A DNA stretch of 45,748 nt from a virus, in IMG/VR virus record IMGVR_UViG_3300045988_020540; one strand, 5' to 3'. The notes under the pieces were generated by a model, which ran no database searches, was not told the origin of the DNA, and worked only from the letters and a program-made list of their open reading frames with translations. This document shows positions 1 to 45,748 of the stretch, piece after piece. Position 1 is the stretch's first letter, and every line of letters begins with the position of its first letter. The translations under genes were made by a program, and so were the position numbers.

Positions 1-43
1 CAGCAGATTGCTTAATGGCACTGTTCATCTCAGTGGTTGTGGA
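1..43. repeat. Terminal direct repeat (assembly overlap), identical to 45706..45748; implies a circular or circularly permuted genome with 45,705 bp of unique sequence
   Basis: The first 43 bases (cagcagattgcttaatggcactgttcatctcagtggttgtgga) recur exactly as the last 43 bases of the window. Confidence 0.9.
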
Positions 44-1924
44 ATAGCTTTTCAGGCGTTCAGTAACATTATTATTAGCTGTTTCAAGGGTATCACTTAA
101 CCCTGATTCAAACGTAGCATTGGTAACATATGTTTTACTTACCGTAGCTGTAATATTATCAGCCGCCAGTTTGATAGCTGAGTTCATCTCAGTGGTTGTG
201 GAATAGCTTTTCAGCTTTGAATCCGTATTAATCCCGGCATCTACAAGTGCCTGCTTTACTTTAGCTGTGGCATCTTCACCTGCTGCTGTTAATGTAGAAT
301 TATATTTGCTTTCAGCATCCTCTTTAGTCTCATATATTTCTGAAATATTTTTAGAAACCGTTAAAGTAATACTATCTGCCTGTTGCTTAATAGCTGATTC
401 CATATCAGTTTTAGTTGAATAATCAACCAATTTATCATCTATTTTTTCTTCGATCTCCGTGGTGACACTTTCTTTATAATCTGTGGCAATTTTATCAGCC
501 GTAATGCTTCCGGCTTCGATATAGTCTGCGGTCAGTTTATAAGTCGCCAACATCTGCAATACCGCATTACCATCTTTCGTAACTCCATATTCCCATACAG
601 GTTCACCGTTATTCCAATTTTTAGTCCATGCAAAACCATTTGCCTGAAATGTATAAATGATATTACTGGTTTCCAAAGTCTCTCCATCATGAAAATAATA
701 CTTTGTTGACCCGTTGTCCTGCTTAACACCTGTCATATACAAACCTAGGCTGTTAGCAAGCAAACGATTCATCTCTAAAGTAGCCTGTTCTCTTGAAGAT
801 AAACTATTTTCTACTTTCTTTCGTATAGTTTCCAAAATGGTAGCCTGCTGTTTAGTTAAACCGTTATTTTTATCATAACTTTCATTCTGAGTGGTTTCCC
901 CTTTACCTGCTATTTCGGTACTCTGATTCATTACAAAATTAACATTGGTTACAATAGTGTCATGTGTTATGCCCTTACTGTCCTTATATGAAATCCTGTC
1001 CATAGGATAAAGGTAAGGGGCAGGCTTAATCGTGGCTTCATACGGACGATATGAAAAATCCTTCAAAGAAACATACAGTGTATCAATAACTACCTGTGGA
1101 TTTTCCTGAATCAATCCATTCGTACTTAAATCTAAGCAATAATCGTCTGTGCCTGCAATGTACTCTTTTTCCTCTTCATCATCCTTAAAATAGACACCTG
1201 TTATAGAAATATCGTTTTCATACATATCACTGTCATATCGTTCAGACGATGTGATTAATACATTTGTAGACTCATACCACTTTATCTCTAAATTTCCATC
1301 ACTGTTCATAAATGCACAAGTTCCGGTTAATGCAGTACACCATTGTAACAATGTACGATAAGTAATTGCCTGATCGCTAGGAAATTCTTTAATTGAGTAA
1401 TCCTTATTTACTAACTTTGACAAACTACTCACACAAGTAACTCCGCAAAGTGAACAAATACGATTTATTAAGTCCTCTACCGTCATCGGAAAACTTAATT
1501 TTGATTCGTCAACAACCTTATCGAAGCACATCATTCTATCCAGTGCTGAAATCTTAATTGTACTTTTATGCCGTGGAGGTTCATCTATAATGAAGTGCCC
1601 GCAAGGAACCCAGTATGTAGGTACTGATCCTGTAGCTGTCCAATCTTTAATCCCTATCTGCACATAAAGTTCCGCACCTTCAAAAATCGTATTGTCATAT
1701 TTACCGCTATCATTTTTTAAATTAAATGATAATTCCGCAGCAACCGCAGAACCAACTTCGATCTTTGAACCTGAAACACTATATCTGTCAATCGTCAGAC
1801 TTCCTTGCAGAATTTCAGATTCTCTGATTGTAAATGAACCTGACTTTCCGCTAACTGAAATTTGCACGATTTGTCTGTAATTTTTATTGAATAAATCAAT
1901 AACTGTTTGACTTACTTTATACAT
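1..1924 (-). CDS. Large tail / minor structural protein, N-terminal 641 codons. The ORF runs off the window start and continues across the circular junction to the stop at 45005 (874 aa in total).
   Basis: ATG at 1924..1922 overlaps the upstream stop (TAATG). I checked every codon of this frame from 1924 to 1 and found no stop. Position 1 is a codon start and is in frame with 45706 of ORF 45005..45733. It sits directly after the tape measure and a small tail protein. It is missing from the ORF track because it lacks a stop inside the window. Confidence 0.85.
   Translation of the reverse strand, partial: MYKVSQTVIDLFNKNYRQIVQISVSGKSGSFTIRESEILQGSLTIDRYSVSGSKIEVGSAVAAELSFNLKNDSGKYDNTIFEGAELYVQIGIKDWTATGSVPTYWVPCGHFIIDEPPRHKSTIKISALDRMMCFDKVVDESKLSFPMTVEDLINRICSLCGVTCVSSLSKLVNKDYSIKEFPSDQAITYRTLLQWCTALTGTCAFMNSDGNLEIKWYESTNVLITSSERYDSDMYENDISITGVYFKDDEEEKEYIAGTDDYCLDLSTNGLIQENPQVVIDTLYVSLKDFSYRPYEATIKPAPYLYPMDRISYKDSKGITHDTIVTNVNFVMNQSTEIAGKGETTQNESYDKNNGLTKQQATILETIRKKVENSLSSREQATLEMNRLLANSLGLYMTGVKQDNGSTKYYFHDGETLETSNIIYTFQANGFAWTKNWNNGEPVWEYGVTKDGNAVLQMLATYKLTADYIEAGSITADKIATDYKESVTTEIEEKIDDKLVDYSTKTDMESAIKQQADSITLTVSKNISEIYETKEDAESKYNSTLTAAGEDATAKVKQALVDAGINTDSKLKSYSTTTEMNSAIKLAADNITATVSKTYVTNATFESGLSDTLETANNNVTERLKSYSTTTEMNSAIKQSA
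23..214 (-). repeat. Intragenic repeat: exact 33 bp copies at 23..55 and 182..214, 159 bp (53 codons) apart, encoding LKSYSTTTEMN
   Basis: gttcatctcagtggttgtggaatagcttttcag occurs at both positions. A third degenerate unit (DYSTKTDMESAIKQQADSITLTVSK) lies upstream in the protein. Confidence 0.85.
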
Positions 1925-16449: not shown

Positions 16450-16558
16450 CCACAAGCCCCGGCAACAGTCCGGGGCATTGGTTTATAATGCAGCCGTAGG
16501 CGGTCACAAGCCCGCATAAATGCAGAGTGTAAACCAATATAGAAAAGGACGTGATAGC

Positions 16559-17287
16559 ATGAAAAGAGTCTGGAAAACACCAGAACTTGATTATTATAAC
16601 CTTTATGCCGATATGCTACAACAGCCCCATTTATTAATTGCAGGGGCTACGGGCAGCGGTAAAAGCGTTGTAATAAATGGCATGATGACAACAGCACTAA
16701 AGGACAGCCCCGCCGCTGTACAGTTTATATTGATCGACCCTAAACGGGTTGAACTGGTGGACTATAAAGAACTGCCCCACACACTGCGTTATAGCAGTGA
16801 ACCGGGGGAAATGGTACAGGCATTACAGGAAGCTATAACAATAACTGATAACAGGTATAGAGATATGGCACGGCAGCACGTCAAGAAATACGGCGGCGGT
16901 GCTGTGTATGTAGTTATTGATGAATTAGCGGATTTGATGACAACGAACAAAAAGCAAGTACAGCCGATATTACAGCGGCTCTGTCAGATCGGCAGGGCGG
17001 CAAACGTCCACGTTGTAGCCGCTACACAGTGCCCGTTGTCTGCTGTGATCCCTACACCTATAAAAGTAAACTTTGATAGCCGTGTAGCCCTCAGAACACG
17101 CAGCGGACAGGACAGTAGAAACATTTTAGGCGTGACAGGTTGCGAACTGCTACCCCGGTACGGTCAAGGCTACTACATGACCCCGGAGGGATGCCGACTG
17201 TATAATATCCCGATGTATGAAACAGAAACCCCGGACATAATAGAATATTGGAGGAAACAGAAACCCCGGATTGTATGGAATGGATAG
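16559..17287 (+). CDS. FtsK/SpoIIIE-family ATPase, motor core only, with no membrane or gamma domain
   Basis: Walker A is LLIAGATGSGKSV. LIDPKRVEL and Walker B YVVIDELADLM are followed by HVVAATQCP and a DSRNILG motif, all in the order seen in FtsK_SpoIIIE domains. I prefer the start at 16559 (MKRVWK). Confidence 0.85.
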   Translation: MKRVWKTPELDYYNLYADMLQQPHLLIAGATGSGKSVVINGMMTTALKDSPAAVQFILIDPKRVELVDYKELPHTLRYSSEPGEMVQALQEAITITDNRYRDMARQHVKKYGGGAVYVVIDELADLMTTNKKQVQPILQRLCQIGRAANVHVVAATQCPLSAVIPTPIKVNFDSRVALRTRSGQDSRNILGVTGCELLPRYGQGYYMTPEGCRLYNIPMYETETPDIIEYWRKQKPRIVWNG

Positions 17288-34418: not shown

Positions 34419-34825
34419 TCAAATTCCTCCACCCACTGTCGAAAAGTCTTGTACTGCGGAAATTCCTTTTCAGTGATCGTTCCCTCACCGTAAAGCTGTC
34501 TCAGCATGAGTTCATCAAAAGACACCATGTAAATACGTCCGTCTTTCAGCTTCATAGCAAAGTAACAATGCTCATTCCCTGTCTGCTCCCACAGTGTCAT
34601 TGCACCTTCCTGATTACCTTCAATCCGGGATAACGGGAAGCGGTTGGTTTCACATTCCTTGCAGTCAATCAAGACCGGGATGCCATTCTTAACCGCAATC
34701 ACATCTGCGGGCTGTCCTACCTGATTCTGTGCCATGTTGTGTGCCCAGAAACCATGTAAGGCAAGCAGTTCACAAAACTCTTCCTCAAAGTGGTTTCCAT
34801 TTTTCTTGTTACTGTTGGTGGACAT
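34415..34825 (-). CDS. PD-(D/E)XK Holliday junction resolvase-like nuclease (RecU/Hjc-like)
   Basis: 136 aa. GNHFEEEF and PADVIAVKNGIPVLIDCKEC fit the E...D...(D/E)xK layout. Confidence 0.5.
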   Translation of the reverse strand: MSTNSNKKNGNHFEEEFCELLALHGFWAHNMAQNQVGQPADVIAVKNGIPVLIDCKECETNRFPLSRIEGNQEGAMTLWEQTGNEHCYFAMKLKDGRIYMVSFDELMLRQLYGEGTITEKEFPQYKTFRQWVEEFE

Positions 34826-35373
34826 TACGCTTCCACCATTTGCACCTGACGGTGCAATTTAAGATTCTTCGGATTGAATACACAAGCCGGGGCAACCCCA
34901 CTGCTGTAGTACGCAAAGTCGCCGTCCAGATAACCCGTATTGTACACACCGCGAACGTAGTCACTGTTCCCGGCGTCTGAGATATACCAAGGAGTGCAAG
35001 TCCACATCCACTCAGGAAGCAGCGGAACGTGCTTACGGTACTTTCTGTATTCATCACAACTCAGGATGAAAACTCTATCTGTGACTGTGCCGTAACGGTC
35101 ATCTCCGTTGTCAGCTACCAAGTCAACCTCATGAGGAATAAGATTATCCTCACCCAACACAGGAAGCAGTTCATTGAGCAGCTTTCTACGCAGGCTTGAC
35201 TTTGCGTAGTTGTTGCAACCGTCATCATCGAAGCTGTACTCTTCATTGTTCCAAGCGGAAGTCATAACTGCCAGAACACCGCCATCCACGTTGTTGTCAA
35301 GGACGATCCATTCAAAACCCTTGAAGCCGAAACGCTCACCTGCACTTAATACACCAATGTTTTCTTCTTTCAT
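34825..35373 (-). CDS. Second (remote) DGR target protein, small, with a C-terminal variable region
   Basis: The C-terminus ...SDAGNSDYVRGVYNTGYLDGDFAYYSSGVAPACVF is encoded by VR2 and is homologous to the TR and to the VR1 end of 42051..43196. I prefer the start at 35373 (MKEENIG) because a GGAGG lies 8 nt upstream. Confidence 0.8.
   Translation of the reverse strand: MKEENIGVLSAGERFGFKGFEWIVLDNNVDGGVLAVMTSAWNNEEYSFDDDGCNNYAKSSLRRKLLNELLPVLGEDNLIPHEVDLVADNGDDRYGTVTDRVFILSCDEYRKYRKHVPLLPEWMWTCTPWYISDAGNSDYVRGVYNTGYLDGDFAYYSSGVAPACVFNPKNLKLHRQVQMVEA
34840..34857 (-). promoter_or_regulatory. Hairpin 23 nt downstream of VR2 (candidate DGR target-recognition element)
   Basis: The minus strand reads TTGCACC-GTCA-GGTGCAA, a 7 bp stem with a 4 nt loop. 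It lies inside the last codons of the gene. Confidence 0.6.
34881..34977 (-). repeat. DGR variable repeat 2 (VR2)
   Basis: Gapless alignment to TR 41449..41545. All 17 mismatches fall at plus-strand T of the TR, which is A on the coding strand. Confidence 0.85.
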
Positions 35374-35375
35374 GG

Positions 35376-35525
35376 TTAATTCCTCCATTCATAATCTTTG
35401 TGGTACTTTGCCTTGTACCATTCTTCAAACTCTTTCTTGTGTTCCGTTGACTGGAAGTAGTCTTTGACTCTCTCAATCAACTGGGAACACAAAGCACTTT
35501 CTTCCATCGTAGGAACTGCCATCAT
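35376..35525 (-). CDS. Small protein (49 aa) between cro-like gene and DGR target 2, not in the ORF track
   Basis: My translation is MMAVPTMEESALCSQLIERVKDYFQSTEHKKEFEEWYKAKYHKDYEWRN. The ATG overlaps the upstream TGA, and an AAGGAG RBS is present. Confidence 0.45.
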   Translation of the reverse strand: MMAVPTMEESALCSQLIERVKDYFQSTEHKKEFEEWYKAKYHKDYEWRN

Positions 35526-36376: not shown

Positions 36377-36403
36377 TAAGCATTGAAGAATGGAGGAAGA
36401 ACC

Positions 36404-37987
36404 ATGTACGAAGAGATTAAGACTGCCTGTCTATATCTGCGATATTCAAGCAGCAACCAAACTGAACAGTCCATAGAAGGTCAGATGCACGTCTGCCAAG
36501 ATTTCTGCAAGAGACACAATATCAGAATTGTAGAGATGTACATAGATCGTGCCACCTCTGCCAGTAAGGACATAGAGAAAAGAGTAGAGTTCTTGAAGAT
36601 GATTAAGGACTCAGAAAAGGGGAACTTTGATGCAGTCATCGTCTATAAACTTGACCGCTTTGCCCGATCCCGGTATGACTCAGCTACTTACAAGTACCGT
36701 CTGAAAAGAAACGGTGTACAGCTTGTCTCTGCCACTGAGAACATCACCCAAGACCCGGAAGGAATCATTCTTGAATCCGTTCTTGAAGGTATGGCAGAGT
36801 TCTATAGTGCGGAACTCTCACAGAAAATCAATCGTGGTATGAGGGAGTCAGCTATGAAGCATAACTCCATCGGTGGGGCTATCCCTCTGGGGTACAAGAC
36901 CGTGGATAAGAAACTGATAGTTGATGAAACCACTGCACCTATCGTCCGGGAAGCATTTCAGATGTATGCAGACGGTGAGTCCGTAGCTGAGATATGCAGG
37001 ACATTCAATAACCGTGGGTACAAGACCTCAAAGGGAACACGCTTCGGGAAAAGCAGCTTCACCAAGATTTTCCGTAATGAGAAATACATCGGAGTCTATA
37101 AGTACCATGACTACCGGGCAGAAGATGTTATCCCACCGATCATAGATAAAGCCCTCTGGGACAGAGTGCAAGTGAGAATCGGTAAGATAAAGAAAGCCCC
37201 TGCCCGAAACAAGGCAAGGCATACTTACCTTCTGACAGGGAAACTATTCTGCGGACACTGCGGCAGTGCCATGAACGCTGACGGCAACTCTAACGGCTAT
37301 CTATACTACAGATGTTACGGTAAAAAGAATCTGGATAAACAATGTAATAAGCGGAACATGGAAAAGAACTTGATTGAAAGACTGGTTGCACAGGACGCAA
37401 TGTCATTCCTAACCGATGAATATATTGAGAAGATTGCTACTATTGCCTGTGACCGGAACAGACAAGAGATTGAGAGTGATTCACCCATCCCTGTGATCCG
37501 TGACCGGATTAGACAGGTTGACGTGTCTTTGAACAATCTGCTGAAAGCTATCGAAACTGGGTCTGCCCCGGATATGCTTGTAAAGCGTATGGGAGAACTT
37601 GAAACTGAGAAGAAAGATATGGAAGTGCAGCTTAAAAAGGAAATGGCACACCAAGTCTATATTGATAAAGAGCAGGTAATCTTCTGGTTAGAGAAGTTCC
37701 GTGAAGGGGATATCAATGACGAAGAGTTCTGTCAGACCGTGATTGATCTGTTCGTAAATTCTGTGACTGTATGGGATGAACCGGACAATAAGTTCAGGAT
37801 CACCATAGCCTATAATCTCACCTCTATACCGCAAAAAACCTACCGCCTGTCGAAAGACGGTAGGTTATCGGATTACGCTTCCAATACTCCACCATTGAGT
37901 GCAAATCCAATGATCTCAGGAAGCCTTATGATTCATACCTTTACAGTCACCGTACACCCGCAGAAACGGGGAAGGAAAACCCTGTAA
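36404..37987 (+). CDS. Large serine recombinase (integrase)
   Basis: The N-terminal resolvase domain has CLYLRYSSSNQ (catalytic Ser region) and VIVYKLDRFARS. A recombinase domain follows, then a zinc ribbon (CGHCGSAM...YYRCYGK) and a coiled-coil C-terminus. I prefer the start at 36404 with its GGAGG RBS. Confidence 0.9.
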   Translation: MYEEIKTACLYLRYSSSNQTEQSIEGQMHVCQDFCKRHNIRIVEMYIDRATSASKDIEKRVEFLKMIKDSEKGNFDAVIVYKLDRFARSRYDSATYKYRLKRNGVQLVSATENITQDPEGIILESVLEGMAEFYSAELSQKINRGMRESAMKHNSIGGAIPLGYKTVDKKLIVDETTAPIVREAFQMYADGESVAEICRTFNNRGYKTSKGTRFGKSSFTKIFRNEKYIGVYKYHDYRAEDVIPPIIDKALWDRVQVRIGKIKKAPARNKARHTYLLTGKLFCGHCGSAMNADGNSNGYLYYRCYGKKNLDKQCNKRNMEKNLIERLVAQDAMSFLTDEYIEKIATIACDRNRQEIESDSPIPVIRDRIRQVDVSLNNLLKAIETGSAPDMLVKRMGELETEKKDMEVQLKKEMAHQVYIDKEQVIFWLEKFREGDINDEEFCQTVIDLFVNSVTVWDEPDNKFRITIAYNLTSIPQKTYRLSKDGRLSDYASNTPPLSANPMISGSLMIHTFTVTVHPQKRGRKTL

Positions 37988-39379
37988 TTACAGAAGTCTG
38001 TTGACTTCTTTCTGCACAGCAGCATAATCATATCCTGCGGCAGTCAACTTGTTCTTACGGTCTGTGCCGTTGCCCCACTTGCCTGCGATAACTTCCTTCG
38101 CAATCTGAGTCACAGATTTCTTACTGGAAGTGCTGCCCTTCGCCAGTTCATTGACTTTCGCCTGAACCTGAGAGTAATTGTACCCGGCAGCTTCCAGTTT
38201 CTTCTTACGGTCATCACCGTTGCCCCACTTGCCTGCAAGCACCTCTTTTGCGACTTCGGTAACGGACTTTGTAGGTGTGGTAGTTTTACCGCCTGCAAGT
38301 CTGTTTACCGCAGCCTGCACCTCAGAGTAGTTATATCCTGCGGCAGTAAGAGCGTTCTTTCTGGCATCACCATTACCCCATGCACCTGCAAGAACTTCCT
38401 TTGCTACTTCATCTACAGATTTCTTAGTAACAGAAGTGCTGCCGCCATCTGGATATCTCAGAACATGATTCCACGGATAATTACGGTAAGCCCTGATAAG
38501 AAACTCTTTTCCGGTCTGATCTCCCGGTGTTCCACCTGTAGCCGTACCTTTTTCATTGATAGACGCTTCCACTTCCATACCATTACCGCAATACATTGCG
38601 ACATGGTGTTTGTCATTCAGCAAAATATCACTTCGTTTCAGTCCTGCACCTGTAGCCAGATTTACCTTATTGGTAACATCTTCAAAACCGAAGTGTTTGA
38701 ATACGGCAAGCATTACTCCCGTATAAGCACATCCGTACTTTTCAAAAGAGTAGGTTTTTACCGGAATCCCTGCGTGTTCCCATGCAGTATATACAGCGGA
38801 AGAACAATCGTAGTCACCATCTTCGCCCCAACGGTGTGTCTGGCAATATCCATGTCTGTCATCTTTCGCAGTATCTTCCATCCATTTGATAGCTGTCTCT
38901 GCTTTACTCATTTTTGTTACCTCCTTATCATACTTCGTAAGATTGTATTGTTCAACCAGTTTCATGTTATTAGTCACATAAGTAGAACTTGTGGCATATC
39001 CGTCAGCCTTGATGGTTTCCAGATATTTCTTCGGATCAGTGATCCCTTTAAGGTTCTGATATCTGGCAAGCTGAATGAACTCAAAGTAACCCTTGATACC
39101 TTCCTCCATAGAATCATAGACACGGAAGTTGTCTTTAATCGTAGTCAGTGTACCCACGCTGTACTCTTCCTGAGTAGTCATGTTGACACTCTTGCCTGTC
39201 CACTTCGTACCACATTTAAGTCCGAAGTAGTTATGGTATCGGGCGGCAAGTTTGGAATTGCCCCAACCAGATTCAAGAATTGCCTGTGCAATAATCGGAC
39301 TATGTACTTTGATTCCGTACTGGGCTGCATACTTCTGTACGAACTTCGCTACCTGTTCAATAAATTCCTGATTTGTCAT
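37988..39379 (-). CDS. Modular endolysin: N-terminal glucosaminidase (GH73-like), central Cys-peptidase-like domain and three C-terminal CW_7 repeats
   Basis: AQAILESGWGNSKLAARYHNYFGLK is a GH73 signature. YDCSSAVYTAW...HHVAMY suggests a Cys/His peptidase. GxWGNGxxRKxxLxxAGYxY occurs three times. Confidence 0.85.
   Translation of the reverse strand: MTNQEFIEQVAKFVQKYAAQYGIKVHSPIIAQAILESGWGNSKLAARYHNYFGLKCGTKWTGKSVNMTTQEEYSVGTLTTIKDNFRVYDSMEEGIKGYFEFIQLARYQNLKGITDPKKYLETIKADGYATSSTYVTNNMKLVEQYNLTKYDKEVTKMSKAETAIKWMEDTAKDDRHGYCQTHRWGEDGDYDCSSAVYTAWEHAGIPVKTYSFEKYGCAYTGVMLAVFKHFGFEDVTNKVNLATGAGLKRSDILLNDKHHVAMYCGNGMEVEASINEKGTATGGTPGDQTGKEFLIRAYRNYPWNHVLRYPDGGSTSVTKKSVDEVAKEVLAGAWGNGDARKNALTAAGYNYSEVQAAVNRLAGGKTTTPTKSVTEVAKEVLAGKWGNGDDRKKKLEAAGYNYSQVQAKVNELAKGSTSSKKSVTQIAKEVIAGKWGNGTDRKNKLTAAGYDYAAVQKEVNRLL
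37991..38419 (-). repeat. Three CW_7 (Cpl-7-like) cell-wall-binding repeats of about 41 aa
   Basis: The repeats are SVDEVAKEVLAGAWGNGDARKNALTAAGYNYSEVQAAVNRL, SVTEVAKEVLAGKWGNGDDRKKKLEAAGYNYSQVQAKVNEL and SVTQIAKEVIAGKWGNGTDRKNKLTAAGYDYAAVQKEVNRLL. Confidence 0.85.
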
Positions 39380-40021: not shown

Positions 40022-40199
40022 GATCCTGTACCTCCTGTTCGTCATCTTCCTGCTCCATCTCGATATCTGTCATCATAGCCAGATATTCAATGTCACTGTT
40101 CGCCTTTGCGATCTGTGCCTGCATTGCAGCGTTCTTCTGACGCTCTTTTACAAGCTGTTCTCTTGCACTGATAAATCCAAACATTTGCTTTCCCTCCAT
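40005..40199 (-). CDS. Small acidic coiled-coil protein
   Basis: 64 aa ORF overlapping the 3' end of the RT ORF. An alternative start MFGFISA lies 5 codons in. Confidence 0.4.
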   Translation of the reverse strand: MEGKQMFGFISAREQLVKERQKNAAMQAQIAKANSDIEYLAMMTDIEMEQEDDEQEVQDHGEEE

Positions 40200-41281
40200 A
40201 AATTCTTATAATATTGATCCATACAGATAATGAGGTTGTGACAATTTCTCCTTGCCCTCCTACCCGGAGATTTCCTTTTCTTGCTACTCTCATTACCTAC
40301 ATGGGCTTTCCAACTCTCATAACACCTGTCAACCTCTTCCTTCGTCATGTACCCTTGCTTTGCCCTTTCTACCAACTTCCGCAGCTTTCGCCGTTCGTGT
40401 GATAACTTCTCTGGCAGTAATGTCATGACTACCTTTCCGGTCTTTACCAACCGGAAGCGGAAACCTAGAAACTTGATACCCTGAGTCACCTTGAAAAGCT
40501 GTGTTTTCTTCGGACTCAATCTCAAACCTCTTGCGGTCATCCAAGCATCTATCTTTATCAAACACTCCTGTAAATAAGCCTTGTCCTCATGGATGATAAT
40601 GAAATCATCGTTGTACCGGACATAGTGCTTAATATGAAGTTGCTCTTTTATAAAATGGTCGAAGTCATCTAAGACTGCTAACTGTATAAGCTGTGTCGTT
40701 TCTGAACCAAGACCCATACCTACCTCTGGATCATCACCCTGATTGAAGCTGTCAATGATCCGCTTAATTTCTCCGTTCACCCATTCATCCGTGACTCTCT
40801 TCGTTACCGCTGAATAAGCCAGTTCATGAGAGGTGCTACCGAAGAAATTCTTCAAGTCTGCTTTGAGTACCCACCCTTCCGTACCGTGTTTCCGGTAATA
40901 CTTTTGTAGGTGGCAGATCAGCCTTTTCCTTGCGAACTCTGTTCCTCTTCCGTCCTGACAAGCACAGTTATCATAGATAAATGATTTTGTCATGGTATCG
41001 TAAAAGTAGTTGTCGCATAGGCTTCTCTGAAATACTCTGTCCTTGATTCTTGTACTTACAATGTCTCTTTCTTTTGGCTCATACACTTTGAACTGTGTAT
41101 AAGCATCTAACTTATATGTACCATTCTCCACGCTCTCCTTTAGCTTATGAACATTAACCAAACCATTCTTTACATACCCGGCTACACTGTCTTTCCACAT
41201 GACGTTGTTCTTGCAATGCTGCATAGCCCGGTACAGATTATCAAAGTCACAGACTTCATCTCTCACTTCGGATTCCATCAT
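40148..41281 (-). CDS. DGR-type reverse transcriptase
   Basis: 377 aa with RT motifs. The YxDD box appears as VRYNDDFIII. LGSETTQL sits in the position of the DGR-specific [I/L]GxxxSQ motif. The gene is directly downstream of the TR. Confidence 0.85.
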   Translation of the reverse strand: MMESEVRDEVCDFDNLYRAMQHCKNNVMWKDSVAGYVKNGLVNVHKLKESVENGTYKLDAYTQFKVYEPKERDIVSTRIKDRVFQRSLCDNYFYDTMTKSFIYDNCACQDGRGTEFARKRLICHLQKYYRKHGTEGWVLKADLKNFFGSTSHELAYSAVTKRVTDEWVNGEIKRIIDSFNQGDDPEVGMGLGSETTQLIQLAVLDDFDHFIKEQLHIKHYVRYNDDFIIIHEDKAYLQECLIKIDAWMTARGLRLSPKKTQLFKVTQGIKFLGFRFRLVKTGKVVMTLLPEKLSHERRKLRKLVERAKQGYMTKEEVDRCYESWKAHVGNESSKKRKSPGRRARRNCHNLIICMDQYYKNLWRESKCLDLSVQENSL

Positions 41282-41552
41282 GTATATTTCTCCCGTAAAT
41301 CATTGGTTGCCGTTTATAGTGATACTGCCGTAAGGACGGCAATCACATCAGCACTCCGTTTTCGCCCTACTATATTCAGGTCAGGGTGACGATTCCTTGT
41401 GTGAGTGCATTGATTTCAGCCTATGCCTACTTTATTACTAGCGTTTCTCACAATCCGGGGCAACCCCATTGCTGTTGTTCGCATTGTTGTTGTTCAGATT
41501 ACCCGTATTGTTCACATTGCGAACGTTGTTACTGTTCCCGGCGTTCGGGGTA
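41282..41552 (-). ncRNA. Predicted DGR RNA: template repeat plus 168 nt spacer upstream of the RT
   Basis: A non-coding stretch lies between the TR 3' end (41450) and the RT start (41281). It contains a perfect hairpin, TGCCGT-CCTT-ACGGCA on the transcribed (minus) strand, at 41326..41341. Confidence 0.5.
41450..41552 (-). other. DGR template repeat (TR)
   Basis: In the frame of the targets the coding strand reads TPNAGNSNNVRNVNNTGNLNNNNANNSNGVAPDC, with 15 AAY codons. It has 35 adenines on the coding strand. It is not part of any plausible ORF. Confidence 0.9.
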
Positions 41553-41586
41553 AACACATATCTTACAATCGTCAACCTTATATCAT

Positions 41587-42006
41587 TTACTTGTATCTAT
41601 TTTCATCAGACCTCTTCCAGTTCCGAAGAAGATTCTGGACATTGATTACAAGTCCTGTCCAGTAGTCCATCTTAGAACCTTCGATTCCGAAAGTACGGTA
41701 AGCAATATCCATCATGGTTAGCAAGGAATATGTCTATGCCAAAGCCTGAACTTGATATCCTCTCCGTAATTCCCAGTCGGCTTTCCAATGTTCAGACTCA
41801 GGATTCACATACACTGAATTTGCCATATTGATAAGTCGGCTGATTTCTACCGCAGCATCTACGATCTTTGCGGTGATGCACCAACGGTATCTCTTCGGGA
41901 AGCAACTCTCATTACTGCAAATATGGATAGTATGTGTAGCCAACTCATTTGCCTTTGTGATTACTTCCAACTTTGAAGTACCTCTCTTTGACTTCGGTAC
42001 TGACAT
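41587..42006 (-). pseudogene. avd: avd (accessory variability determinant, four-helix-bundle type) interrupted by an in-frame TAG at 41734..41736
   Basis: The N-terminal part (42006..41737, MSVPKSKRG...YQVQALA) and the 42 aa ORF 41715..41587 (MMDIAYRTFGIEGSKMDYWTGLVINVQNLLRNWKRSDENRYK) are in the same frame. They are separated only by TAG plus 6 sense codons. The combined length of about 139 aa ends 35 nt before the TR. Confidence 0.65.
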
Positions 42007-42022
42007 TTTCCTCACTCCTTTC

Positions 42023-42040
42023 CCACCCCTAACGGGGTGG
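42023..42040 (-). promoter_or_regulatory. Hairpin 22 nt downstream of VR1 (candidate DGR target-recognition element)
   Basis: The minus strand reads CCACCCC-GTTA-GGGGTGG, a 7 bp GC-rich stem with a 4 nt loop. It lies between the target stop (42051) and the avd RBS. Confidence 0.65.
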
Positions 42041-42050
42041 ATTTCTGATC

Positions 42051-43196
42051 TTAGATTACGTTACAAGCCGGGGCAACCCCATGGCTGTTGTTCGCACCGT
42101 AGTAGCTCAGATCACCCGTACTGCGCACACCGCGAACGTTGCCACTGTCCCCGGCGCTCGGGGTACGCTCCCACTGCCACTGCGGACTACCGTTTTTATA
42201 CTTCACACGGTTACTATCAGCACCCGTGTTCGGGGAAGTATAATCAGAATAGTCAGAGTAGTAAGGGTACGGCTCACCTTCCTTGACACTGCTCACTTCA
42301 TCACCCATGAATAACTCACGTCTGGAAAGCAGGAAGAACTTGTCCTTTGTGGTATCAGAACCACCGCCGTCAGTTACGTTATTACGACAAGTAACCTTTG
42401 TGGTCTTACCGATAACTGCAAGGAAATCTGCATCCATTCCATTCATAAATCCTGCCTTATTGGAAACCCAAGAAGGAGGTCTATCATAATTGGTAGCAGG
42501 TGTCCAAACAGAACCCGCAACTTTGTCACTGTTCAACCATCCACGAACCGCAGACTCTTTATAGTTATTAGAGCCGTAGCACATTCTCTGACCGCTGTTC
42601 AGCGTTGTCAGTTCCGTACCGCCTGTACCCTCTGTGGGCTTCACAGTTTCAATAACTGTGGTGCTTGTAGGACTGGCGTAAGTTTTAATGTCGTATTTCA
42701 GCGGGTCTTGATCCCAAGCACCATTCCATACGATCTGTCCACCCTTCGGAACTGCTTTCGCAAGAGTAAACTGGTAAGTCTTACCGTTACCCATACCACC
42801 ACTCCAACCGTTCTTAGGAGTTACATGATATGTACCTGCGGCAAGTTCCTCTTCTGCATAATACATAGCTGCCGGGGCGTTAAACTGTACATAATCAAAC
42901 ACCTCATGAAGCTGTAAAGTCATGCTGTGAGTGAACTGCTTGTCTGCCGGGGTATCAATGTCAAAACCGATGATATCCCACACCAGAGTTGTGCTACCTC
43001 TCTGACAGGTCAACTGATCTCCCACCGCAAATACCTTGCTTGCCAGTCCCTTACGAACAAGTGCCTGCACATCACTCCAAGATGTAGGTTTCAGGCTGCC
43101 ACCCTGTCCGGTTGCAATCGCAGCAAGGAACTGGTTCATAGTGTCCATCTTCTCTGCGAACGTATCGTCAGAGAGAAAACCAAACTGATTGCTCAT
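42051..43196 (-). CDS. DGR target protein 1: tail-fibre tip / receptor-binding protein with a C-terminal variable region
   Basis: 381 aa ORF directly after a coiled-coil fibre shaft gene. The C-terminus TPSAGDSGNVRGVRSTGDLSYYGANNSHGVAPACNVI is encoded by VR1. Confidence 0.85.
   Translation of the reverse strand: MSNQFGFLSDDTFAEKMDTMNQFLAAIATGQGGSLKPTSWSDVQALVRKGLASKVFAVGDQLTCQRGSTTLVWDIIGFDIDTPADKQFTHSMTLQLHEVFDYVQFNAPAAMYYAEEELAAGTYHVTPKNGWSGGMGNGKTYQFTLAKAVPKGGQIVWNGAWDQDPLKYDIKTYASPTSTTVIETVKPTEGTGGTELTTLNSGQRMCYGSNNYKESAVRGWLNSDKVAGSVWTPATNYDRPPSWVSNKAGFMNGMDADFLAVIGKTTKVTCRNNVTDGGGSDTTKDKFFLLSRRELFMGDEVSSVKEGEPYPYYSDYSDYTSPNTGADSNRVKYKNGSPQWQWERTPSAGDSGNVRGVRSTGDLSYYGANNSHGVAPACNVI
42063..42165 (-). 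repeat. DGR variable repeat 1 (VR1)
   Basis: 103 bp gapless alignment to TR 41450..41552. All 17 mismatches fall at TR positions that are A on the coding strand. Confidence 0.9.
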
Positions 43197-44745: not shown

Positions 44746-45012
44746 TTACCCGTCCTCCTTTGGCATTTCAGGTTCAGACTGCTCACTCTCTGTTTCAGGT
44801 TCAGACTGCTCACTCTCTGTTTCAAGTTCAGACTGCTCAACCCTTATCTCTGCATATAATTCAGAGTTCTTTATAGCTCTTACATCAGCCAAAGCCCCCT
44901 GTAATACACCTTCCATCAAGTATGCAGGAATGTTAGTTTCAGCAATAATTTGATTGATAGCTGAATTTACCCTTACTCTGACATCTTCAACAATCATCAA
45001 TAAACTACTCAT
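44746..45012 (-). CDS. Small acidic protein with a tandem-repeat C-terminus
   Basis: 88 aa ORF whose start overlaps the stop of the large tail protein. The C-terminus is VEQSELETESEQSEPETESEQSEPEMPKEDG. Confidence 0.55.
   Translation of the reverse strand: MSSLLMIVEDVRVRVNSAINQIIAETNIPAYLMEGVLQGALADVRAIKNSELYAEIRVEQSELETESEQSEPETESEQSEPEMPKEDG
44767..44840 (-). repeat. 27 bp tandem repeat, about 2.7 copies, in frame (9 codons per unit)
   Basis: ttcaggttcagactgctcactctctgt occurs at 44767..44793 and identically at 44794..44820. A diverged partial copy starts at 44821. Confidence 0.9.
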
Positions 45013-45748
45013 TATTTAAGCCCTCCTTTTCATATAAATTTTGTATTAATCTCAGCATAGCCGGAATAATAACCCTAAAGTTCCAGTCCTCAGGTTCGCC
45101 ATTTTCATTTAACTGAGTTGCCTGCGGAAAACAACTGTACACATCCTCTGCATAAAACCCCGGAAGTTTCTTTCCATTCAGCCAGTCTGTTTTATTAAGA
45201 TAACCATCCTTATATTTAAACCAGATTACAGGTATATCTAAGATTTTCTGTGCTTCTTCTAATGTCATGTCTGCAATATGATCTTTATATCTTTTCGAGG
45301 AAGAAGATAAATAAGCTACAGTTGCACCGTCTTTTGCGAATACCATATGTCCACCGGATGTTACATGAGACAGATTGAAAACCTTAAATGCGTCAGAACC
45401 ATCCGAAAACGTTGAAGTACCCGCACGTATCTCTAACCCTCCATTAAAAACGAAAGCATGTGATTGCATACTTAACGTAGCGTAACCCGTACTTATTTTC
45501 CCGTTTGTAATTGTAAAATTACCGATAGTTCCTTTCTTCGCTATAAATGATCCGTCTGTTTTAATCTGAAAATAATTATTCGCTGTAACCAATCCGTTAA
45601 AATTGATTTTAGAAGCATGGATAGTTACACTTTCAGCAGACTGATTAATCTTTGAAATAATTTCATTAGTTCCCACTTTCTTACTTACTGTCAATGTAAT
45701 ACTATCAGCAGATTGCTTAATGGCACTGTTCATCTCAGTGGTTGTGGA
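45005..45748 (-). CDS. C-terminal part of the 874 aa tail protein that begins at 1924, with a probable peptidase S74-type intramolecular chaperone at the end
   Basis: It is in frame with 1..1924 across the 43 bp overlap. The segment AYLSSSSKRYKDHIADMTLEEAQKIL resembles the S(D/S)xRxK autocleavage region of tail-fibre chaperone domains. The stop is TAG at 45005..45007. Confidence 0.75.
   Translation of the reverse strand, partial: STTTEMNSAIKQSADSITLTVSKKVGTNEIISKINQSAESVTIHASKINFNGLVTANNYFQIKTDGSFIAKKGTIGNFTITNGKISTGYATLSMQSHAFVFNGGLEIRAGTSTFSDGSDAFKVFNLSHVTSGGHMVFAKDGATVAYLSSSSKRYKDHIADMTLEEAQKILDIPVIWFKYKDGYLNKTDWLNGKKLPGFYAEDVYSCFPQATQLNENGEPEDWNFRVIIPAMLRLIQNLYEKEGLNNE
45706..45748. repeat. 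Terminal direct repeat, copy of 1..43
   Basis: Exact 43 bp identity with the window start. Confidence 0.9.

Follow-up and report, generated by a model that had tools for sequence, protein, structure and literature searches.

A premature amber codon in the avd gene of a gut phage DGR is probably a recent, recurrent and low-frequency knock-out allele

Among the described DGRs, that of Bordetella phage BPP-1 is the counterpart with which the present locus can be compared most directly. Its Avd protein, bAvd (PDB 4DWL; RNP, 8UB7), is a small basic four-helix-bundle protein, like the one predicted here, and the order of its elements, target, avd, TR and RT, is also the order found in this study. 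[quoted passage not shown] Inactivated DGRs have been described as well. Premature stops are a known and frequent cause of DGR inactivation, and over half of the candidate DGRs examined by Wu et al. 2018 were discarded for such defects (PMC5758913). In those DGRs, as in the one considered here, a component is disabled by a stop, and TR, VR and RT are still recognisable. No description of an avd nonsense polymorphism within one phage population was found in the literature searched.

The DNA analysed here, referred to as the window, is the whole 45,748-nt stretch of the IMG/VR virus record IMGVR_UViG_3300045988_020540. The window was assembled as a circle whose ends overlap by 43 nt. It is the genome, about 45.7 kb long, of a temperate phage and has genes for a serine recombinase, a lysin and a holin as well as tail genes. 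The DGR lies on the minus strand in the order target gene with VR1 (43196..42051), avd (42006..41587), TR (41555..41449) and RT (41281..40148), with avd placed between the target gene with VR1 and the TR-RT part. The features of the locus are given below, and related loci used for comparison carry numbers with the prefix L.

42051..43196, minus strand: target gene 1, 381 aa, DUF6273, with VR1 (42062-42168) at its 3' end
42023..42040, minus strand: GC-rich hairpin CCACCCC-GTTA-GGGGTGG, 10 nt past the stop of target gene 1
41734..42006, minus strand: avd N-terminal fragment with the premature TAG; 90 aa, covering helices 1 and 2 and ending midway through helix 3
41734..41736, minus strand: premature amber TAG at codon 91; ancestral CAG (Gln), single C>T
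41587..41733, minus strand: remainder of avd, 48 codons and TAA, now un- or poorly translated (PHROG 3206 match and structure model)
41449..41555, minus strand: DGR template repeat (TR), repeat family D1, aligned with VR1 and VR2
40148..41281, minus strand: DGR reverse transcriptase (RT), 377 aa, intact (ORF list; PF00078 on identical proteins)
34825..35388, minus strand: target gene 2, a 187-aa ORF about 6.5 kb away, with VR2 (34881-34987)

Except for avd, the DGR is complete. The RT protein, identical in L004 and L117, bears PF00078 (RVT_1), and the exact protein was present on 119 contigs. On comparing the repeats, 17 of the 19 mismatches between VR1 and TR and 17 of the 21 between VR2 and TR were located at TR adenines, and the same adenine bias was observed in all related loci. 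The hairpin downstream of target gene 1 is likely the DGR target-recognition hairpin. Its position, 7-bp GC stem and 4-nt loop agree with the description of phage DGR hairpins, and its loop sequence, GTTA, deviates from the reported phage-DGR consensus GRNA (PMC3240598). No second copy of avd or RT was found in the window.

Several further features of the genome were recorded alongside the DGR. Target gene 2 is located in the early/replication region, between a RecU-like gene and a small regulator and not among the tail genes, which is unusual for a phage DGR target. At 14 positions, most of them A>G, the TR of L015 departs from that of all other loci; either its template was mutagenised or the assembly mixed TR with VR. 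In L012 and L084, where avd is intact, the target gene is almost wholly deleted, and the 14-codon ORF that is left (MSNQFGVAPACNVI) fuses the start codon region to the 3' end of VR1. The circular junction of the window (1-430 and 45664-45748) falls within a repeat-rich stretch of a large tail gene, and here L004 and L021, the sister genomes, have about 310 nt more; the repeat may vary in copy number or have been collapsed in the window assembly. In the circular genomes, the lysin (37988-39379) has 463 aa and abuts the serine recombinase (36383-37987); in integrated copies (L005/L006, 12628-14049) it has 473 aa and is followed by host genes. From this comparison of circular and integrated copies, the attachment site seemingly lies at the 3' end of the lysin gene.

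The translation of the minus strand over 41587-42015 yielded 143 codons with one internal stop, reading VRKMSVPK...QVQALA, the stop, TYSLLTMMDIAYRTFGIEGSKMDYWTGLVINVQNLLRNWKRSDENRYK and the terminal stop. Whether the frame is opened at 42015 (GTG) or at 42006 (ATG), its sole interruption down to 41587 is the TAG at 41736..41734. The ATG at 42006 is the likely start of avd, which gives a gene of 139 codons in total, with TAG as codon 91 and a 90-aa N-terminal product. Beyond the TAG, six sense codons (TYSLLT) lead into an ATG-initiated ORF of 42 codons, and the final stop of avd, TAA, occupies 41587..41589. The homology between TR and VR begins at about 41552-41555, that is, about 32-35 nt past this TAA. 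In the original prediction, made from the sequence alone, avd had been described as split by a single in-frame TAG, with the TYSLLT codons and the 42-aa ORF continuing to about 35 nt before the TR; the translation agrees with this description in each respect, and the split itself was confirmed by matches of both halves to an Avd profile. In front of the ATG of the 42-codon ORF, no recognisable Shine-Dalgarno sequence or ribosome-binding site was found.

The profile in question is PHROG 3206, annotated as the Avd protein of DGR. The N-terminal part matched its positions 4-69 (E 6.5e-10), the C-terminal part its positions 86-128 (E 1e-3), and the joined product its positions 4-128 (E 2.8e-16), which was the best score of the three. 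As both halves fit one Avd profile and score best when joined, the two pieces are one gene. The Pfam model for bAvd-like proteins, PF22296, reached only 13.3 bits with the N-terminal fragment, below its cut-off of 40, and the Pfam search with the joined protein gave no match; in a precomputed table, PF22296 was present in three homologues. A profile search of PDB with the sequence of the avd product alone returned no match, and blastn against GenBank phages returned just two weak, unannotated matches.

A search with the joined protein retrieved about 345 single-ORF homologues, nearly all of those listed being 136-139 aa long and aligned from end to end. The deeper branches of the family all keep an intact avd of about 137-139 aa. 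These homologues bear on the idea that the phage has a naturally short Avd of about 90 aa together with a separate, conserved small ORF. Apart from the ORF pattern itself, nothing speaks for such an arrangement. None of the approximately 345 homologues presented it; they are roughly 136-139 aa in length and span both parts in a single ORF, and the split form occurs as a minority allele that a single base separates from the intact one. A naturally short Avd is therefore hardly conceivable as an explanation. The ancestral gene had been predicted to be about 140 codons long, which fits well with the 139 codons determined here and with the CAG found at codon 91 in close relatives.

The structure was modelled on an intact relative, P0001, which is 99% identical to the joined Avd of the window. 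The AF2/AlphaFold model (pLDDT 88, pTM 0.81) consists of four helices, covering residues 13-31, 38-64, 74-106 and 110-138. Using Foldseek with this model, bAvd (4dwl, 8ub7) and the S23-IVP bundles 2gsc and 2rld were retrieved with a probability of 1.0. In the case of bAvd, the TM score was about 0.8 when normalised to the target, whereas the sequence identity to the window Avd is merely about 10% and the Pfam bAvd model stays under its cut-off. On the basis of profile, predicted fold and position, the gene belongs to the Avd family.

Codon 91 falls in the middle of predicted helix 3 (residues 74-106). The part of avd behind the stop, 41587..41733, would encode helix 3 from its middle onwards and helix 4, so the earlier suggestion that the downstream peptide is the last helix of the bundle was right in including helix 4 and too narrow in leaving out half of helix 3. 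Position 91 itself is variable in the family, being occupied by Q, H, N, Y, S, T, A or E; the invariant residues W116 and W130 are absent from the 90-aa product. Unlike bAvd, the window gene is broken at codon 91, and about 2.5 helices would be made from it. An Avd gene is expected to be one uninterrupted ORF, and because the window copy is interrupted by TAG at codon 91, it is a pseudogene allele of avd.

Comparing the avd genes of related phages, which the original prediction had proposed as a check, placed the stop on a background of intact genes of 136-139 aa with CAG at codon 91. The closest relatives carry CAG (Gln) at this codon, and the window differs from them by one C>T in the DNA alignment with L001-L003. 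CAG is also the codon in each of the 13 IMG/VR loci in which the surrounding 29-mer occurs. Moreover, no premature avd stop was present in about 27 loci with this avd that had been anchored on RT, a sample unbiased with respect to avd.

The TAG allele is nevertheless not confined to the window, as opposed to what would be expected if it were an assembly or sequencing artefact of a single contig. That the TAG is one base from the common allele is compatible with such an error. Against it, the identical 90-aa product was found on 37 contigs from JGI, Logan and ENA, and the index lists it in 56 blocks. The product was read on the 23 longest contigs, which come from different studies, and the internal TAG was confirmed in loci L004-L007. 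In addition, L004 and L021 are near-identical full-length genomes with the same TAG. An artefact is thus very improbable, and sequencing error, which had been named as one way in which the split-gene reading could fail, is contradicted by the presence of the product in independent studies.

The exact intact protein with Q91 was found on at least 1000 contigs, and the intact allele is at least 25 times commoner than the TAG allele; as some samples were assembled more than once, these numbers of contigs are too high. The TAG form is in the minority and accounts for no more than a few per cent. Of the earlier proposal that the stop may be an assembly or population variant, the second half was correct, 37 contigs standing against at least 1000 as the mark of a real population variant, and the assembly error was not borne out. 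Since contigs with the intact protein reach 816 kb, the phage also occurs as a prophage in bacterial genomes, and it is extremely common in human gut metagenomes. A near-identical Avd is named from an Anaerobutyricum hallii MAG, and one that is 96% identical occurs in a MAG labelled Coprococcus. The host assignment is tentative because a scan of GTDB genomes gave just three loci, in MAGs labelled Coprococcus and uncultured Clostridia.

Some gut phages read TAG as Gln with phage suppressor tRNAs. The present case resembles this recoding in that a human gut phage has an in-frame TAG at a position occupied by Gln in its relatives. Accordingly, whether the TAG might be a sense codon, through a code with TAG as Gln or through pyrrolysine, had to be weighed. 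The replaced residue is the one that a TAG=Gln code would give. It is also the residue that mutation alone would lead us to expect, since CAG to TAG is the sole transition from Gln to a stop. Seven other ORFs of a simple gene set terminate with TAG, and in each of them further stops follow 5-41 codons on. TAG ends the ORFs at 45005, 16520..17287 and 14655, for which it had already been called a genuine stop in the original prediction. ARAGORN found no tRNA genes in the window, and hence no suppressor or Pyl tRNA there; no other genes are split by TAG; the relatives use CAG; and TGA stops occur at other avd codons. Unlike in the recoded gut phages, a single gene is hit, TAG is a normal terminator elsewhere, and the stop at codon 91 is not conserved among the relatives. 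The chance that TAG is read as sense here is close to nil, and the earlier view that genome-wide recoding is unlikely was well founded, given the lack of a tRNA in the window, the seven ORFs ended by TAG and the lack of conservation of the stop.

The stop at codon 91, hereafter TAG91, was found on three haplotypes, each separated by a single base from an intact counterpart of its own. The avd of the window haplotype (window, L004 and L021; markers T78 and A147) differs from the intact L119 and L116 at the TAG base only. Similarly, the haplotype of L005-L007 equals the intact L014 and L020 plus one base, and the S19 haplotype of L022-L025 equals the intact L010 plus one base. The same TAG therefore arose on at least two, and probably three, backbones. 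Short-tract recombination could also have carried TAG91 onto several haplotypes. Samples show 0-6 differences per 2.9 kb of an almost clonal backbone, and as the population has been sampled thousands of times, the same transition is expected to become visible several times; independent recurrence of TAG91 is the simplest reading.

TAG91 is not the only knock-out in this population. Other truncated forms fall into the same 90%-identity cluster as the 90-aa product, and further avd stops were verified in the DNA, namely, W74 (TAG and TGA), Q87 (TAG) and W116 (TAG and TGA). Internal stops were also present in RT, at R174 (TGA; L098-L100) and Q63 (TAG; L106), with avd intact in those loci. Each of these premature stops is one step from an intact relative. 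Avd fragments of the exact length expected were found for R57, W78, Q85 and Q124 in addition, and the control lengths of 60 and 100 aa, which no single-step stop follows, were absent. Because many matches of the fragment look-up are partial genes at contig ends, these counts are upper bounds, and only the stops verified in the DNA were used as evidence. The RT counts were inflated in the same way; in the case of Q63, seven of the eight places were contig ends. A comparison of the nonsense load of avd and RT by look-up of exact fragments was dropped on account of this inflation.

The origin of the stops was also considered. By eye, the C>T and G>A changes that create them share no motif of a deaminase type or any other common context, and DGR self-mutagenesis was rejected as their source because the changes are not at adenines. 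One related locus, L028, is doubly damaged, with TGA at W74 of avd and an RT gene that has lost about 570 nt internally. In L037-L039, L044, L046-L049, L103-L105 and L107-L113, the contigs end exactly at polymorphic stop sites (avd nt 258-260 and 345-347; RT nt 184-187 and 519-521). Ends at such sites are expected if the assembly graph branches there, which hints at stop and sense alleles in one sample.

The VRs of the stop carriers were then compared. The window and L004 differ by five SNPs over 20 kb, and their VR1 and VR2 are identical. The exact target protein of the window was found on five contigs, a one-residue variant with the same VR1 on three, and the exact VR2 protein on eight. L005, L006 and L007 have one common VR1, and the corresponding target protein was present on 21 contigs. 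In the intact loci with the RT of the window, every VR1 differs from that of the window. This pattern had been considered as a decisive test for frozen VRs in the form of exact-protein counts. The test was dropped, as the contigs counted may not stem from independent samples and intact-avd duplicates share VR1 too: near-identical loci with intact avd sometimes have the same VR1 (L056/L065 and L019/L058), some of them probably from the same sample. Since VR1 is also shared among intact loci, the frozen pattern of the window lineage is not diagnostic.

A different pattern was observed in three carriers of TAG91 on the S19 haplotype. L022, L023 and L024 show 0-3 differences in the 2.9-kb backbone and 14-21 differences in VR1, all of the adenine type, and the TAG carriers on S19 are not separable as a clade from the intact L010. 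We read these three as separate recent mutations, each of which would have frozen a different VR1, because the intact L010 is as close to each carrier in sequence as the carriers are to one another. The same differences would also fit diversification that went on after the stop. It is rather doubtful, however, that premature avd stops fail to end diversification, with stop lineages continuing to gain adenine-type changes in VR1. The cause would then be a leaky stop, or the supply of Avd or of the whole RT-Avd-RNA machinery in trans from intact relatives in the same host.

In a related and more general form, the stop may be tolerated and the DGR may work at a reduced rate. Three routes could lead to this. 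Termination at UAG-A may be leaky with near-cognate insertion of Gln; termination may be followed by reinitiation 18 nt further on, at the next ATG, so that Avd is made in two pieces; or an intact relative, of a kind very common in this habitat, may reside in or superinfect the same cell and provide Avd in trans. Every stop carrier has its own adenine-mutagenised VR1, and between L022 and L024, whose TAG and 2.9-kb backbone are the same, 21 positions of VR1 are different. However, each carrier is as near to intact relatives as to the other carriers, and independent origin of the stops explains the different VR1s. An inserted residue would be tolerated at codon 91, which is variable in the family, and the contigs that end at stop sites suggest coexisting alleles and with them the possibility of trans-complementation. 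By contrast, stops occur at many codons, including that of the invariant W116, as both TAG and TGA, and are not conserved, and the additional RT stops make this a pattern of random knock-outs and not of a designed throttle. RT and the sequence downstream of the TAG are intact, which a tolerated stop would explain and a recent mutation predicts likewise. Reinitiation is not helped by the lack of a Shine-Dalgarno sequence before the downstream ATG, nor suppression by the lack of a suppressor tRNA in the window. Overall, we consider a tolerated stop unlikely. The option of a low-level readthrough that throttles DGR activity, as raised in the original prediction, found no support: the stop is not conserved, TAG and TGA occur at other avd codons, RT stops are present in the same population, and the window has no suppressor tRNA.

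We consider it quite probable that the TAG is a genuine recent nonsense mutation, a recurrent knock-out allele of low frequency with which homing is most likely off. A nonsense mutation that disables homing, which had been among the options proposed at first, is the best-supported reading; the two frozen VRs that were part of that option are only consistent with the data. The CAG of Gln91 in the avd of a temperate phage would have been changed to TAG by a single C>T transition. The allele would segregate at low frequency in a very large population, in which it arose more than once, and it may be regarded as part of a wider spectrum of premature stops in avd and RT. Translation by the standard code ends at codon 91. 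Without helix 4 and with helix 3 cut in half, the 90-aa product would not be expected to form the pentameric Avd barrel for RT. As Avd is required in Bordetella and the bundle is truncated here, a loss of homing is expected, and from the predicted structure and the Bordetella analogy we infer that homing has most likely been lost in the TAG lineage. Mutagenic homing would be off or much reduced, with VR1 and VR2 remaining as they were at the time of the mutation. The RT and the downstream frame are still intact, as is expected of a recent mutation. One further change was noted in the spacer between TR and RT: a T>C at position 41386 of the window (avd +621) is private to the TAG lineage (window, L004 and L021/L117). 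The spacer region in which it lies is needed for priming in the Bordetella DGR, and the change may be due to chance or to early decay.

The phage would stay viable with this allele, the DGR being dispensable for lysogeny or lytic growth, and knock-out lineages would recur but not persist. The finding is ordinary DGR inactivation, already known in kind, and not a signal of recoding. Unlike in the catalogue of Wu et al. 2018 (PMC5758913), the defect is placed here in its population, one base from a commoner intact allele, and it recurs on several backbones beside independent avd and RT stops.

For annotation, the DGR of this phage should be flagged as carrying an avd pseudogene and as probably inactive, and its VRs should not be counted as diversifying. 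If stop lineages did continue to diversify, which we have judged doubtful, DGR activity would be a shared good within the phage population. Deep sampling of gut metagenomes yields natural avd and RT knock-outs on near-identical genomes. Such natural knock-outs could serve to measure how far diversification in situ depends on each component and for how long lineages with a dead DGR survive.
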